Assembly: GCA_046347985.1 (NCBI GenBank)
Contig: JAXMFE010000012.1
Coordinates: 35,558 to 99,557, forward strand
Length of the DNA stretch: 64,000 nucleotides
Reading direction: 5' to 3'
Source: Burkholderiales bacterium
Lineage (GTDB): Bacteria; Pseudomonadota; Gammaproteobacteria; Burkholderiales; Ga0077523
The position numbers were made by a program, and so were the translations under genes. Shown one piece after another: positions 15,076 through 62,613 of the stretch. Under the pieces are notes generated by a model. That model had not been told where the DNA came from, did not search any database, and saw nothing but the letters and a program-made list of their open reading frames with translations. Every line of letters starts with the position of its first letter. Position 1 is the first letter of the stretch.

Positions 15076-15819
15076 ATGCGGATTCTTCTCAGCAACGACG
15101 ACGGCTACTTCGCCCCCGGTCTTCAGGCTCTGGCCGAAGCGCTGGGCCCTCTCGCAGAAGTCACGGTCGTCGCCCCCGAGCGCGATCGCTCCGGCGCCAG
15201 CAACTCTCTCACGCTCGATCGCCCCCTGTTCGTCCGCCGCTCTCCGCTCGGCTACCTGTACGTCAACGGTACGCCGACCGACTGCGTCCACCTCGCCGTC
15301 ACGGGGCTTCTGGACGGATTGCCCGACATGGTCGTGTCCGGCATCAATCACGGCGCGAACATGGGGGATGACACGATCTACTCCGGCACGGTCGCCGCCG
15401 CCACCGAAGGTTTTCTGCTGGGCATTCCCGCGATCGCGATGTCGCTGGCAAGTCGCCAGAGCGAGCATTTCGCCACGGCCGGGCGCGTCGCCGCCGATCT
15501 CGTGCGCCGGTATCTCGATCGGCCCTGGACGCAGCCGACGCTCCTCAATGTCAACGTCCCGGATCGCCCGTACGGCGACCTGGCAGGTATCGTCGTGACA
15601 CGCCTGGGCAAGCGCCACAAGGCCGAACCCGTGATCCGGTCGCAGAATCCCCGCGGGGATACGGTGTACTGGGTGGGCGCCGCCGGCGGAGCGGCCGACG
15701 CGGGGCCCGGCACCGATTTCCATGCGGTGGCGTCCGGGCATGTGTCCGTCACGCCCCTGCAGATGGATCTCACGCACTTCGACCAGCTCGATGGCATGCG
15801 AGACTGGGTCGGTCCCTGA
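15076..15819 (+). CDS. surE: 5'/3'-nucleotidase SurE
   Basis: Start re-picked to ATG 15076 ([15 protein letters not shown], the SurE signature). The listed ORF start at 14941 lies inside the tRNA. Confidence 0.95.
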
Positions 15820-15838
15820 CTCACGGCGCACGCGGTCC

Positions 15839-16498
15839 ATGGACTCCCGGCATCTCGGCATCGGCATGACCTCGCAGCGCACCCGAATGCGCATGGTCGA
15901 GCGTCTGCGCGAGCAGGGCATTCGCGACGAGACCGTGCTCGCTGCGATGGCGGAAGTGCCGCGGCACATCTTCGTCGACGAAGCACTGGCGAGCCGTGCC
16001 TACGAGGATCTCGCCTTGCCGATCGGATTCGGTCAGACGATCTCGGCCCCGCTCACCGTCGCGCGAATGCTGGAGTTGGCGCGGAACGGGCGCGCGCTGG
16101 GTCGGGTGCTCGAGATCGGGACCGGCTGCGGCTACCAGGCCGCCGTGCTGTCCCGCATCGCGCGTGAAGTCGCTTCCGTGGAGCGGATCTCGTCGCTGTT
16201 GGGCCGTGCGCGGCGCGGGCTGCGCGAGTTGCGCGCCACCAACGTCAAGCTGAAGCACGCGGATGGTCAGATCGGACTGGCCGAGGCGGCGCCGTTCGAT
16301 GCGATCGTGATGGCCGCGGCGGCGCCGGCCATCCCCGAGGCGCTGACGGCACAACTCGACCTCGGGGGCCGGCTGGTCCTTCCTCTCGGCACGAAGGAGC
16401 AACGGCTCGTCGTGATCGAGCGGACCGAGAACGCGCTGGTGGAGACGTTGCTCGAGCCGGTGAACTTCGTGCCGTTGCTCGCCGGAACGCGCGTATGA
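15839..16498 (+). CDS. pcm: Protein-L-isoaspartate O-methyltransferase
   Basis: Motifs [27 protein letters not shown] and the SAM-binding [16 protein letters not shown] 15839 is chosen as the first start after the surE stop; ATG 15866 (MTSQRT) is an equally plausible alternative. Confidence 0.9.
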
Positions 16499-17484
16499 CC
16501 ATTTCCCGCGGTGTTTCCGTGACGCTGGCCGTGGTGGTGGCGGCAGCGATATCGGCGGGTTGCAGCTTCACCGACGAACAACCGGTGGCCGGTGCCGGCA
16601 AGCCCGCGGCAAAGGTGAAATCGACCGTGCCCCGGCGCAAGGGCGACGAACGTCCCGACGCCTACGTGGTGCGGTCCGGCGACACCCTGTTCGGCATCGC
16701 GTTGGACTTCGGCCTCGACTACCGCGAACTCGCGAGATGGAACGGGCTGCAGGATCCCGACCGCATTCTCGTCGGACGACAACTGCGGTTGATTCCGCCG
16801 TCGGGTGATGCCGTGGAGCCGGCGACGGTGAAGCCGCTCGGCAAGGGACAGGAGGCCGTCGTCGAGTCGCTCGGCCATGCCGGCGAATCCCCGGCGCCGT
16901 CGTCCCGCACCTTGCCGGACGGCAGGCAGATCCCGATCCTGTCCGAGCCGGCCGCGCTCACCGTCGACTACTCGGACGCCGAGTGGTCGCGACTCGGCGG
17001 CGCTCCGCTGGCGGGCCTGAACGACAAGGCCGTTGCGGCGGCGTCGGCAGGCAGGCGTGACAAGGACAAGCCGGCGAAACCGCCGGAGAAGGACAACGCG
17101 CCCGACGACGATGCCATCGAGTGGGCATGGCCGACGAAGGGCGACGTGCTCTACCGTTTCGGCGAACCCGGTCGACCCAAGGGCATCGGCATCGGCGGCA
17201 AGGCCGGGCAGCCCGTTCAGGCCGCGGCGGACGGCAAAGTGGTCTACAGCGGGACGGGTCTGCGGGGATACGGAAAGCTCGTCATCATCAAGCACAACGA
17301 GACCTACCTCTCCGTCTACGCACACAACCAGTCGGTCCTGGTGAAGGAGGGCGACCTCGCCAAGCGCGGCCAGAAGATCGCCGAGATGGGCGACACCGAC
17401 GCGACCCGCGTGGCCCTTCACTTCGAGGTCCGGCGTTTCGGACAGCCGGTCGATCCGCTCACCCGGATCGGGAGTCCGCGGTAG
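16495..17484 (+). CDS. nlpD: LysM-domain / M23 peptidase-domain lipoprotein (NlpD-like)
   Basis: Lipobox AAISAGC. LysM region ([29 protein letters not shown]). C-terminal M23 fold ([24 protein letters not shown]...LHFEVR). ATGA overlap with pcm. Part of the canonical surE-pcm-nlpD order. Confidence 0.85.
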
Positions 17485-60235: not shown

Positions 60236-60877
60236 ATGACACTGTCACGCCTGCTGATTGCGACCGCACTCGCCACCGCCTTGCCGGCGCTTGCCGCCAC
60301 CAGTACGTTCGACACCGGAACGGAGGGCTGGACCGCTCAAGGGGATGTCGAAGGGGCGATCCAGTGGATCGGGACGGGTGGCCGCCCCGGCGGGCACGTC
60401 TTCATCGATGATCGAACCGTCGGAGGCGTGACTTACTTCGTTGCCCCTGCCGCTTTCCGTGGCGATCGATCCGGAGCGCTGGGAACGAACCTGACGTTCG
60501 ACCTGCAGCAGGTCTATCCCGGCAGTCCGAATCAGTTCGACTCGTCGGACGTGATTCTCGAAGGCAACGGACAGACGCTCGTCTTCGACACGACGGCGAA
60601 TCCGACGAATGGCGCGTGGACGTCGTACGCGGTGCCGTTGTCGGCGCCGGGATGGAAGGTCAGTGCCCTGTCGGGCGCGGCGGCCACGCCTGAGCAGTTC
60701 GCGGCGGTCCTGGCGAATCTGACGGCGCTCAAGATCCGCGCGGAATACCAGACGGGCGCGGACGTCGGTCATCTCGACAACGTCGCCCTGGTACCCGAAC
60801 CGGGGACGTGGGCCATGCTGTTGGCCGGGGTGTGCTGCCTGGGGCTGGCGTTCCGACGGGGACGGACGAGCGCGTAG
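60236..60877 (+). CDS. PEP-CTERM-anchored secreted protein
   Basis: Start re-picked to ATG 60236 with AAGGAGA upstream. Signal peptide MTLSRLLIATALATALPALA. C-terminal PEP-CTERM sorting signal VPEPGTWAMLLAGVCCLGLAFRRGR. Confidence 0.8.
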   Translation: MTLSRLLIATALATALPALAATSTFDTGTEGWTAQGDVEGAIQWIGTGGRPGGHVFIDDRTVGGVTYFVAPAAFRGDRSGALGTNLTFDLQQVYPGSPNQFDSSDVILEGNGQTLVFDTTANPTNGAWTSYAVPLSAPGWKVSALSGAAATPEQFAAVLANLTALKIRAEYQTGADVGHLDNVALVPEPGTWAMLLAGVCCLGLAFRRGRTSA

Positions 60878-61191
60878 TTCGCGGTTCGAGACGGCGCGGG
60901 ACCGATCCCCGGCGACCGTGCGGACCTTGCCGTAGCGGACGCGCCGGTCGTCCAAGGTTCCACCTCGTCGGGCGGCCGCGGCGGCCCGGCTCGCGGTGCC
61001 CGGCGCGCTCCCCGTTTTTCTCCAGGCGGTGCAGACGCAAGCGGCCTGCGAACGGTTCTGCAGAGCCTGCGCTCGTCTCCCTGACGAATCGGCGTCCTGC
61101 CGGTCGAGCCAGCGCCCGCGCAGGGGAGTGCGGGGCCGCGCGCCCGAAGCATCGATGCGATACTGACGTGGAGATCGCCACGAGGTACGCC

Positions 61192-62355
61192 ATGAGACTC
61201 CTGGACCGGATCGACGTTCGCGGTGCCCATGCCAGGCGGATCGAACTCCTGCAGGGCGACATGACGGCGCTCGCGCCCGGAGAGGGTTTCGATCTGCTGG
61301 TCGTGTCGGCCTTCCCCGGCGACTACACACCGACGCCGGGTTCGCTCATCGGGGCGCTGCAGCGGAAAGGGTTGTCGGTGCAGGCGCTCTCGCAGGACAT
61401 GGCCGTCGATCTCCGGGATGCCTACGCGTCCTGGGTGTCGAACGCCTTCGATATGCCGGACGCCGATCTGCGGTTCCATCGCGTGCTGTGCTTCGAGCCG
61501 CGCGAGCGGGGGCGTCCGCCGGAGCGGGTCGGGGACATCTTCCGGGCGCTGACACCGATCCTCGCGGAGGCCCCGGAAATCCGGACGGTCGCCCTGCCGC
61601 TGATCGCCACCGGCGATCAAGGCTACGACGTGGACGAGATGCTCACGCCGCTGCTCGATGCCGCGATCCAGTGGCTGGAGCGCGGCCTGCCGCTGGAGGC
61701 ACTCAAGATCGTGACCCGCTCGGCGTCCGACGCGAACGATGCCGCGAAGATCTTCTCGGCCCGGGCCGACCGGTACGGGCGCAGGGCACCCGCGCCACCC
61801 CCGTTCGAGTCCCGGGCGATTCCCGGGATGGGTGCCGACGTCGCGACGCCGATCACGGTGCCTGTCCCTGCTCCCGCTGCGGTGGCGGCCCCTGCGCCGG
61901 AGCCTCTGCCGCCCGTCGATTTCGATGTCTTCATCAGCTACGCCCGGGAGAATGCCCCGGAGAGCGAGGCCCTCGAAAAGGCACTGCGCCAGTCCCGTCC
62001 GGATCTCCGGATCTTCGTCGACCGCAAGGAAATCGACATCGGCGCCGCATGGCAGCCCGAGATCTTCGAAACGCTGGATCGCTGCCGCAAGGTCGTGGCG
62101 CTGCTGTCGCCGGCCTATCTCGGTTCGAAGGTCTGCAAGGAGGAGTTCAACATCGCCTGGATCCGGGGGCGCGAAACCGGCACGGACGTGATCTTCCCCG
62201 TGTACCTGTACACGACGGCGCTGCCGACCTACATGAAGTACCACAGCTACGTCGATTGCCGCGAGGGCGATGCCGCCAGGCTGTCCGAGGCATCGACCCG
62301 GCTGCTCGCCGCGCTGGACCGTGGGGGAGAGACTCGTCGGGTCGACGGACCCTAA
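61192..62355 (+). CDS. Macro-like domain / Pro-Ala linker / TIR domain fusion protein
   Basis: Start re-picked to ATG 61192 with GAGG 6 nt upstream; 387 aa. N-domain motifs: LLQGDMT, DLLVVSAF, RVLCFEP, ALPLIATGDQGY. C-domain motifs: DVFISYA, IFVDRKEIDIGAAW, VVALLSPAYLGSKVCKEEF, IFPVYL. Native GC3. Confidence 0.8.
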   Translation: MRLLDRIDVRGAHARRIELLQGDMTALAPGEGFDLLVVSAFPGDYTPTPGSLIGALQRKGLSVQALSQDMAVDLRDAYASWVSNAFDMPDADLRFHRVLCFEPRERGRPPERVGDIFRALTPILAEAPEIRTVALPLIATGDQGYDVDEMLTPLLDAAIQWLERGLPLEALKIVTRSASDANDAAKIFSARADRYGRRAPAPPPFESRAIPGMGADVATPITVPVPAPAAVAAPAPEPLPPVDFDVFISYARENAPESEALEKALRQSRPDLRIFVDRKEIDIGAAWQPEIFETLDRCRKVVALLSPAYLGSKVCKEEFNIAWIRGRETGTDVIFPVYLYTTALPTYMKYHSYVDCREGDAARLSEASTRLLAALDRGGETRRVDGP

Positions 62356-62613
62356 TCCCGCACCGGACATCGGCCGATAGAGCGGGGAGCGGCACCGGCG
62401 TCATTGCGGTGCCTACCCCCCGCCCCCGGATCGAATCATGTCGACACGATCTTGTCCCGTGTTCCCGGCCCGACGCCTGTCGCCGTGTGCCGCGCTGGGA
62501 TCGCGCGAGCGATCGCGCGGGAATCCGGCATCGCCGGCGGCAGACGGGGCGGCTGCGTCCCACCGGATGCCCATGGGTCGGGTCCTGCCCGTGAGTGCCC
62601 TGACGAGACATCG

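Follow-up and report, generated by a model that had tools for sequence, protein, structure and literature searches.

A widespread Macro-TIR protein family: a candidate ligand-gated NAD+-cleaving switch in a Burkholderiales genome

Immune signalling by NAD+/ADP-ribose, in bacteria as well as in plants and animals, centres on two domains, TIR and macro. In the systems known so far the two domains lie on separate proteins, as in type II Thoeris, or the TIR domain is gated by an ARM, SAVED or STING module. SARM1 (ARM-SAM-TIR), TIR-SAVED and TIR-STING each carry a nucleotide-binding regulator fused to TIR, and ligand-controlled assembly activates the NADase. The pairing of a writer with an eraser is likewise known, from macro-PARPs and from toxin-antitoxin pairs, and TIR domains are classically seen as assembly or adaptor domains in TLR and MyD88 signalling. 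Here, we analyse a gene from a 64-kb stretch of a Burkholderiales bacterium genome (contig JAXMFE010000012.1; the whole stretch is called the window, and coordinates are those of the window unless a locus is named) that encodes a macro-like domain, a linker and a TIR domain in one polypeptide, an arrangement that we call Macro-TIR. The family to which it belongs is widespread, has been neither named nor characterised, and goes in databases only under "TIR domain-containing protein". An earlier note on this DNA, made from the letters alone, knew of no characterised protein with this architecture, and our literature searches found no description of one either; full-text searches that included the conflict-system papers of the Aravind group returned no description of the Macro-TIR cassette or of TIR-sheath fusions.

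The gene occupies positions 61192..62355 on the plus strand (387 codons plus stop), and its translation is uninterrupted. Among 5.8 billion proteins searched, 586 turned up as relatives at E<=1e-3, and the 119 homologues listed out of these 586 are 53-62% identical to the query, nearly all of them over 88-99% of its length. We take the open reading frame (ORF) to be a real gene and not a chance ORF; the translation and the homologues agree with the 387-aa product first proposed, and Pfam, structure prediction, fold search and profile search all bear out the presence of a macro and a TIR domain in one chain.

The macro-like domain covers residues 1-197 (61192..61782, +). AlphaFold2 (AF2) gave a predicted local distance difference test (pLDDT) score above 90 over most of residues 1-200, and in a Foldseek search against the PDB essentially all top matches were macro domains, namely YmdB, OiMacroD, macroH2A, Af1521, PARP9/14/15 and MacroD2 (E 1e-7 to 1e-8, probability 1.00, target-normalised TM score 0.70-0.75, ~180-205 aligned columns). 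Two non-macro names atop the list are SPX-domain crystals, one of which has a title that reads "carrier-driven crystallization"; their carrier is presumably a macro domain, so we took them as macro-carrier fusions. Matches among viral structures were generic macro domains only. At the sequence level, Pfam Macro (PF01661) falls below its gathering threshold (E 0.16, 12.4 vs 22 bits) and covers residues 114-149 only, the VALPLIATGDQGY region. The family profile matches Af1521 at E 6.6e-4 to 1.3e-3 and the PARP14 macro domain at 1.1e-3, and hhalign against Af1521 gives a probability of 85% (E 6e-6) over the C-terminal half; the significant hhalign/HMMER alignment to Af1521 extends over residues 110-190 only. 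The modelled fold and the marginal sequence evidence are consistent with each other, and on both we assign the N-terminal domain to the macro superfamily. The earlier note had read this domain as macro from the order of its motifs, and the model and fold search gave a macro fold and not some other one.

To describe conservation we scanned 1.84 billion cluster representatives with a profile of the macro-like domain, which gave 1100 at E<=1e-3. The figures below come from the best 150 of these 1100 representatives (50%-identity clusters) and, for TIR columns, from 116 representatives. Asp23 of the Q-G-D-M-T motif (61258..61260, +) pairs with Asp20 of the Af1521 GDIT motif in the HMMER alignment ("iellqGdlt" vs "LKLAQGDIT"), with G22 kept in 98% and D23 in 95%. 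Af1521 Asp20 is the Asp that binds adenine N6. In a ThsA macro structure, the contact to adenine N6 is made by D83 (PMC11204291). The first loop, S39-A-F-P-G-D-Y-T-P-T48 (61306..61335, +), is a remodelled signature of the subfamily that replaces the NAAN...GGG of MacroD (S39 99%, A40 95%, F41 81%, P42 80%, Y45 97%, P47 89%); F41 occupies the position of the NAAN Asn, an equivalence taken from the fold match, and there is no run of Gly. Gly60 is kept in 100% of the macro-like domains, D73-L-R75 (61408..61416, +) holds family-specific invariant polar residues (D73 98%, R75 89%), and Glu102 of C-F-E-P (61495..61497, +), at the canonical HxVGP position, is Glu in 99%. The second loop, P136-L-I-A-T-G-D-Q-G-Y145 (61597..61626, +), is paired by HMMER with P-A-V-S-A-G-I-Y-G-C of Af1521, G141 being aligned to Af1521 G143 (P136 96%, G141 99%). 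Since HMMER pairs both QGDMT and the second loop with Af1521, the motif map drawn in the earlier note was right for these two elements, and its placing of loop 1 is consistent with the fold match of the whole domain. What did not survive is the description of the domain as degenerate, given that S39, Y45, G60, D73 and E102 are each conserved in at least 97%. By its alignment columns the domain is instead a tightly conserved subfamily with invariant residues of its own (S39, Y45, G60, D73, E102), which retains D23, the Asp for adenine binding, as well as the second phosphate loop, and has remodelled the first loop and the distal-ribose part. Current Pfam, NCBIfam and PADLOC models miss this subfamily; the PADLOC ThsA model gave no match to the macro-like domain.

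The TIR domain, residues 243-365 (61918..62286, +), is recognised by Pfam, by profile matches to TIR structures and by Foldseek. TIR_2 (PF13676) scores E 1.1e-19 and 71.6 bits against a gathering cut-off of 28 over residues 246-361, and TIR (PF01582) E 4e-8 and 33.7 bits against 21.3. The hallmarks that had been pointed out beforehand, DVFISY, IFVDRKEIDIGAAW, VVALLSPAYLGSKVCKEEF and IFPVYL, all occur and follow one another as listed. In the AF2 model beta and alpha elements alternate over residues 244-382, and Foldseek aligns it to the MyD88 TIR (target-normalised TM score 0.79, E 6e-7). The family profile matches the TIR structures of TLR2, MyD88, TIRAP, L6, RUN1, Cat1, AbTir, SpbK and SARM1, and a ranking of the solved structures by profile match puts TLR2, MyD88, TIRAP and further adaptor TIRs on top, above the bacterial NADases. 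With the Pfam threshold passed and a flavodoxin-like TIR fold, it belongs to the TIR superfamily. The alpha-C motif S312-K-V-C-K-E-E-F319 (62125..62148, +) contains the putative catalytic Glu318 (codon 62143-62145), which pairs with the Glu of TLR2 "SEWCKYEL" (the "WCKYEL" helix) in the profile alignment. S312 is kept in 100%, C315 in 99%, E318 in 97% (112/116) and E317 in 66%, so that of the two residues named earlier as candidates, Glu317 and Glu318, the second holds up and the first does not. The E318 position is that of the catalytic Glu of SARM1 and of plant and bacterial TIR NADases. An hhalign comparison with the human SARM1 TIR aligned beta-A to beta-C and ended before the catalytic helix because of an insertion in SARM1, and the equivalence of the Glu therefore rests on the TLR2 alignment. 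From a Glu at the canonical position we predict that the TIR domain is catalytically competent. Since conserved elements of the macro pocket occur together with a near-invariant TIR Glu, both domains are under joint purifying selection.

Between the two domains lies a Pro/Ala-rich, disordered linker, residues 198-242 (61783..61917, +; pLDDT <50 for 205-233). The linker of about 45 residues noted earlier is thus present and real. It is not a family trait: in most homologues the linker is absent or ~10 residues long, and the 45-residue form is, by this comparison, a lineage-specific insertion. The coupling of the domains is much more constant. Of the 150 best representatives, 122 have a TIR of the same type directly after the macro variant, and "macro-only" entries among the 150 are mostly short fragments; the coupling is near-obligate. 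A complete stand-alone macro-like protein of ~226 aa without TIR is found on the Loki contig and on a Hyphomicrobiales contig (L079, L080). We define the cassette by an S-A-F-P-x-D-Y-x-P loop, D73 and F-E-P, then a TIR with S-x-x-C-x-x-E, all of which the query has. It comes in two forms, either solo, as in the query, or as a module within larger multidomain proteins. About one quarter of the representatives carry extra domains, usually N-terminal: a Ser/Thr kinase with or without FHA (kinase fusions P0166, P0174), an Hsp70-like ATPase (P0157, P0171, P0177, P0189), NUDIX (P0147, P0153), a second TIR (TIR-Macro-TIR in P0143, P0164, P0185, P0216) or OGFr_N (P0209). Further partners are CHAT with an NB-ARC/AAA_16 STAND module, which is C-terminal (Macro-TIR-CHAT-STAND, P0122), and fused VipA-VipB homologues of the sheath found in type VI secretion systems (T6SS). 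The kinase and FHA, Hsp70-like, NUDIX, second-TIR, CHAT-STAND and VipA/VipB modules are typical of prokaryotic conflict systems. The sheath homologues bear Macro-TIR at the C-terminus (P0140, 952 aa; P0141, 1415 aa; P0145, 1717 aa, with an additional N-terminal Ser/Thr kinase and FHA domain; P0133, a fragment), and no description of a sheath-like polymer bearing TIR domains was found in the literature searched. One protein of 724 aa (P0242) has two tandem macro-like domains and a C-terminus without assignment.

The macro variant has a second catalytic partner. In the Ralstonia solanacearum complex a 396-aa "hypothetical protein" joins it to a C-terminal ADPrib_exo_Tox domain, an ADP-ribosyltransferase (ART), in place of TIR. 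The Macro-ART gene is present on 133 Ralstonia megaplasmids, including that of GMI1000 (NC_003296.1, at ~2022059), and these Macro-ART relatives were the only plasmid matches of the family. The copy at locus L090 (5995-7185 of that locus, AP024100.1 2058911-2060101) matches the macro variant with an hhalign probability of 99.7% and keeps the loop-1 motif ("VSCLPGDYTPSPGS" / "PGDYTPSPGS"). E102 is kept as "VYEP"; D73 and R75 are not conserved there. The gene lies in a same-strand cluster with genes for a >2600-aa protein, a 299-aa protein, a DUF6508 protein and a metallophosphoesterase/ASMase_C protein. Since the macro subfamily is fused to an ART in Ralstonia in place of a TIR, it is tied specifically to NAD+-cleaving catalytic domains; judged by domain matches, most lineages have TIR as the cis-partner, and Ralstonia has an ADP-ribosyltransferase.

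The distribution of Macro-TIR is sparse and wide. When one genome per species was scanned by pattern, at least 91 of 185,579 species proved to be carriers, in more than 10 bacterial phyla and in Methanotrichaceae archaea; the bacteria are Beta-, Alpha-, Gamma- and Delta-proteobacteria, Cyanobacteria, Chloroflexota, Planctomycetota, Acidobacteriota, Gemmatimonadota, Actinomycetota and Bacteroidota. The Methanotrichaceae copies are 53-56% identical to the Burkholderiales protein. Archaeal loci (44-56% identity) are L016, L053 and L064 from Methanotrichaceae / Ca. Methanocrinis and L079 from Promethearchaeota "Loki_b32". Such sparse presence across domains, with archaeal copies at this identity, implies horizontal transfer between domains, and a patchy pattern of this kind is typical of horizontally mobile conflict genes. 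Many carriers (Zoogloea, Thauera, Nitrosomonas, Kuenenia, Anaerolineae, Chitinophagaceae) are typical taxa of wastewater, sediment or freshwater. No match to a phage homologue was found. The gene is split over two frames or ORFs in L046, L051 (Nitrobacter vulgaris DSM 10236), L053, L065 and L070, and these copies are either frameshift pseudogenes or assembly errors.

Neighbours of the relatives were read from targeted scans of low-GC loci and from precomputed gene calls; greedy ORF picking in high-GC contigs gave many spurious reverse-frame ORFs (148 neighbour ORFs, 58 loci) and was not used. An all-against-all ORF comparison of 85 loci found no conserved neighbouring gene, and the homologues sit in no fixed housekeeping operon. 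Several distant homologues do lie beside SLATT, TIR, CHAT, TPR-S or patatin genes, so that the link to conflict genes which the earlier note had in mind is there. A SLATT - TIR - Macro-TIR - CHAT cluster is found on contig CAWHXM010000001.1 of a Chloroflexia metagenome-assembled genome (L041 5604-11081), where the genes encode a two-transmembrane SLATT_1/DUF4231 protein, a 400-aa TIR_2 protein and, on the opposite strand, the CHAT protein, with another TIR protein at the edge of the locus. In Chitinophagaceae (L076 5889-10072) the order is TPR-S - small protein - Macro-TIR - TIR-TM, tightly spaced and on the same strand; the small protein has 226 aa and no Pfam match, and the TIR_2 protein has a C-terminal CarboxypepD_reg-like domain and, with a hydrophobic stretch seen by eye, looks membrane-anchored. 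Related arrangements occur in L077, L074, L066 and L067 (Chitinophagaceae / Sphingobacteriales), patatin-like phospholipase genes lie upstream in the related loci L074 and L069, and extra TIR genes lie within 8 kb of Macro-TIR in 7 loci. Locus L086 also holds, at 15291-17032, a UDP-glucose dehydrogenase gene with an intein that carries a LAGLIDADG endonuclease, which is unrelated to Macro-TIR.

A database protein identical to the query (P0001) is named "TIR domain-containing protein [Burkholderiales bacterium]", and on two metagenome contigs the called gene has coordinates that agree with ours. The mechanical ORF reaches upstream to a GTG at 60808, a start that we rejected, as the extra 128 upstream codons have no counterpart in homologues. 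We place the start at 61192 because its Met is also the start in the 45 full-length homologues aligned to the query (M1 kept in >=90% of the 46 sequences), and because a Shine-Dalgarno-like GAGG (61182..61185, +), read directly from the sequence, stands 6 nt 5' of the ATG. Third-position GC content (GC3) is 0.853 in the Macro-TIR gene and 0.73-0.89 in neighbouring genes; since it falls among its neighbours, the native codon usage claimed earlier holds. The flanking genes encode AIM24, two thioesterases, a PEP-CTERM/Laminin_B protein, several hypotheticals and an ABC transporter. PADLOC found no match among the ten nearest genes, whose Pfam content is unrelated to defence, in line with the earlier remark that no effector is adjacent; the 64-kb window has no second TIR or macro gene of the Macro-TIR family, and by Pfam content no CD-NTase/cyclase gene was found in the neighbourhood. 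The upstream gene (60236-60877, +) encodes a secreted protein with a Laminin_B Pfam match and a PEP-CTERM-like end, "PEPGTWAMLLAGV...RRGR". A 315-bp gap with a weak terminator-like hairpin at 60995-61009 separates it from the Macro-TIR gene, in front of which no sigma-70-like promoter was found. Two long ORFs overlap the gene in other frames (60769-62370, -, 533 aa; 61488-62594, +, 368 aa); with their Arg/Pro/Ala-rich translations, both are usual artefacts of ~70% GC DNA.

What might such a protein do? We infer a role in NAD/ADP-ribose signalling or defence, which had been suggested for this gene before and which the domain fusions and neighbourhoods strengthen. For the solo protein we favour, tentatively and with slightly less than even confidence, a switch of conflict or immune type that is complete in itself and cleaves NAD+ under the control of a ligand. 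The macro-like domain would bind an ADP-ribose-type nucleotide, which may be an alarm molecule, an ADP-ribosylated target or the product of the TIR domain itself. Binding of this ligand would control self-association of the protein, by analogy with SARM1, TIR-SAVED, TIR-STING and the ThsA macro domain, and self-association would build composite TIR active sites around Glu318. The assembled TIR would then cleave NAD+, and depletion of NAD+, products derived from ADP-ribose (ADPR), or both, would lead to growth arrest or abortive infection. In the larger relatives the kinase/FHA, Hsp70, STAND-CHAT and sheath-forming modules would supply the trigger or a scaffold, and in the solo protein the macro domain would be the sensor itself.

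Several points weigh against such a switch. The steps of the mechanism are drawn from comparison and not from biochemistry or genetics. The near-invariant Ser39, Tyr45, Asp73 and Glu102 could mark a non-canonical active site and not a passive pocket, and the equivalence of loop 1 in the N-terminal half comes from the fold match and the order of motifs, with no significant sequence alignment there. At position -4 from the Glu stands Val314, and the family has V, M, A, I or P at this site. A Trp four residues before the catalytic Glu is found in SARM1 (W638), in the plant "WCxxEL" motif and in AbTir, and TLR2 has it too. The predicted TM score (pTM) of the AF2 models, 0.60 for the query and 0.75 for a short-linker homologue, gives moderate confidence in a fixed arrangement of the domains, and autoinhibition is therefore neither supported nor excluded by structure. 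The composition of the gene is native, and the neighbours in the window and in seven other contigs with precomputed Pfam are unrelated to defence; a transposase fragment or a PhdYeFM-PIN pair occasionally lies near the gene in those seven contigs. In several Rhodocyclaceae the gene has a fixed site, with miaA (IPPT) on its upstream side and a cupin gene on its downstream side (L004/L005, L007, L046 and L089, from Zoogloea / Rhodocyclaceae), and this shared site speaks for vertical inheritance within the Rhodocyclaceae, despite the patchy global distribution.

Among the other explanations, the first given here is the main rival. If the conserved polar residues do form a non-canonical site, Macro-TIR may be a tandem writer-eraser or two-step enzyme, in which the macro-like domain hydrolyses or converts the product of the TIR domain, or reverses stray ADP-ribosylation as a safety catch, in the manner of PARP14 macrodomain 1, the SirTM-macro pair or DarT/DarG. 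The near-invariant S39, Y45, D73, E102 and D115 do cluster where macro domains line their pocket, the variant is fused to an ADP-ribosyltransferase in Ralstonia, and some relatives have the cassette fused to NUDIX, which also processes ADPR. We nevertheless consider this unlikely, since the MacroD hydrolysis residues (the NAAN Asn and the Gly-rich loop) are absent, Pfam Macro is sub-threshold, and an eraser that is always active would, when fused to a producer, be futile without regulation; in addition, D73 and R75 are lost in Macro-ART, and the catalytic set would thus have to differ between the two fusions. The protein could also act like ThsB, sensing infection through the macro domain or another surface, with the TIR domain making a diffusible ADPR-derived messenger for an effector whose gene lies at another place in the genome. 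Pairs of a TIR gene with a SLATT or Macro effector are described as Thoeris-like systems (bioRxiv 10.64898/2025.12.03.692087), a SLATT effector gene and a second TIR gene stand directly upstream of Macro-TIR in the Chloroflexia locus, and there is weak TIR-level PADLOC/NCBIfam similarity to ThsB1, to ThcB4 of type III Thoeris and to PDC-S66. This is improbable, however, as the 85 loci share no adjoining effector gene, the window has neither another TIR or macro gene of the family nor a PADLOC match among the ten neighbours, and the ThsB-type matches, far below the family cut-offs, cover the generic TIR core only.

The native GC3, the non-defence neighbours in the window and the seven other contigs and the conserved miaA-cupin position in Rhodocyclaceae would all suit a non-immune housekeeping or stress regulator of NAD+/ADP-ribose metabolism, vertically kept and concerned, for example, with dormancy or with NAD-capped RNA; TIR proteins are able to decap NAD-RNA (PMC10937652). 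Such a regulator would hardly be so extremely sparse and patchy while keeping a near-identical architecture in bacteria and archaea, nor would one expect frameshifted copies in several genomes, and the CHAT-STAND, kinase-FHA and sheath fusions, like the SLATT, TIR and patatin genes nearby, are marks of conflict systems and not of core metabolism, so that we hold this explanation to be distinctly improbable. Finally, the TIR might be a non-catalytic adaptor or assembly domain; the macro domain would bind ADP-ribosylated targets, and the protein would serve as a scaffold that brings partners to them. The ranking of TLR2, MyD88 and TIRAP above bacterial NADases in the structural-sequence matches and the missing Trp at -4 would fit, but the Glu at the catalytic position is kept in 97%, alongside S312 and C315, bacterial and archaeal TIRs assayed so far are generally NAD+-cleaving enzymes, and the other fusion partner of the macro variant is also an NAD+-using enzyme. 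We give the scaffold hardly any credence.

Returning to the ligand-gated switch, the observations may be joined into a broader proposal, which we put forward as speculative and rather doubtful. The macro subfamily would be a dedicated cis-partner of NAD+-cleaving domains, the 340-390-aa Macro-TIR would be a complete one-gene immune system that answers an ADP-ribose-type alarm by NAD+ collapse, and the VipA/VipB, Hsp70 and STAND-CHAT fusions would point to a polymerisation- or chaperone-driven assembly of TIR domains, a mode of activation that has not been described. Candidates for the alarm would be the ADP-ribosyltransferase activity of a phage, the signal of another TIR protein, or feed-forward by its own product. 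The cassette would add a new type of sensor to the ligand-gated TIR enzymes and would give a compact, single-protein model for the control of TIR assembly by an ADPR-type ligand. It would also link NAD+ cleavage to unexpected partners, namely T6SS-sheath homologues, Hsp70 and kinases, and, in Ralstonia, a plant pathogen, an ART. A Macro-TIR gene is carried by several cultured hosts, among them Nitrosomonas sp. Nm34, Thauera sinica CGMCC 1.15731, Nostoc sp. CHAB 5824 and CCY 9925, Flavihumibacter solisilvae 3-3 and Ca. Methanocrinis natronophilus Mx.

How does Macro-TIR compare with the known systems? Type II Thoeris (a ThsB TIR with a ThsA Macro-TM) uses the same two domain superfamilies, and its TIR acts on NAD+; ThsA macro domains bind ADPR-type ligands and oligomerise upon binding (PMC11204291). 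Thoeris, however, is a two-gene operon of two proteins in which the ThsA macro domain carries transmembrane helices as the effector, whereas Macro-TIR is a single soluble polypeptide with a different macro subfamily and no conserved partner gene, and, since its macro domain precedes the TIR, the TIR is therefore the only candidate effector. The matches to ThsB1 (18.9 bits) and ThcB4 (26.7 vs 220) are confined to the TIR core and far below cut-off, and we rejected membership in Thoeris for a single gene with no conserved neighbour in 85 loci and no PADLOC match among ten flanking genes. SARM1, TIR-SAVED and TIR-STING share the logic of a sensor fused to TIR, but the sensor here is a macro fold and not ARM, SAVED or STING, and there is no adjacent CD-NTase. 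A PADLOC match to SAVED5--SAVED_TIR (E 9.5e-5) covers only residues 245-371, the TIR core, and, with a macro fold in place of SAVED or STING and no cyclase in the neighbourhood, membership among the effectors of cyclic oligonucleotide-based antiphage signalling systems (CBASS) was likewise rejected.

Single-gene TIR proteins with a conserved catalytic Glu, such as AbTir, TcpB/BtpA and SpbK, resemble Macro-TIR in that respect; their N-terminal parts are coiled-coil or other regions and not a macro domain, and the sequence similarity of Macro-TIR to stand-alone bacterial TIR NADases is weaker than to the TIRs of TLR and MyD88. On the macro side, MacroD, Af1521 and YmdB have the fold in common with Macro-TIR, as well as the GDxT motif, the second phosphate loop and the helix after it. 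They differ in that Macro-TIR has Phe for the NAAN Asn, P-x-D-Y-x-P-T for the Gly-rich loop 1 and the new invariant Y45, D73 and E102, and a MacroD-type hydrolase was rejected since the defining Asn and the Gly-rich loop 1 are absent. In macro-PARPs (PARP9/14/15), SirTM-macro operons and DarT/DarG, an NAD+-cleaving enzyme has a macro domain as its partner, either in cis or within an operon; Ralstonia Macro-ART parallels the macro-PARPs, and PARP14, PARP15 and PARP9 macro domains are among the Foldseek matches. Macro-TIR is set apart from these by a partner that is TIR and not an ART or a sirtuin, and by the missing MacroD catalytic residues. Taken together, the comparison suggests that in its function Macro-TIR would most resemble the ligand-gated TIR NADases and the pairings of a macro domain with an NAD-dependent transferase.

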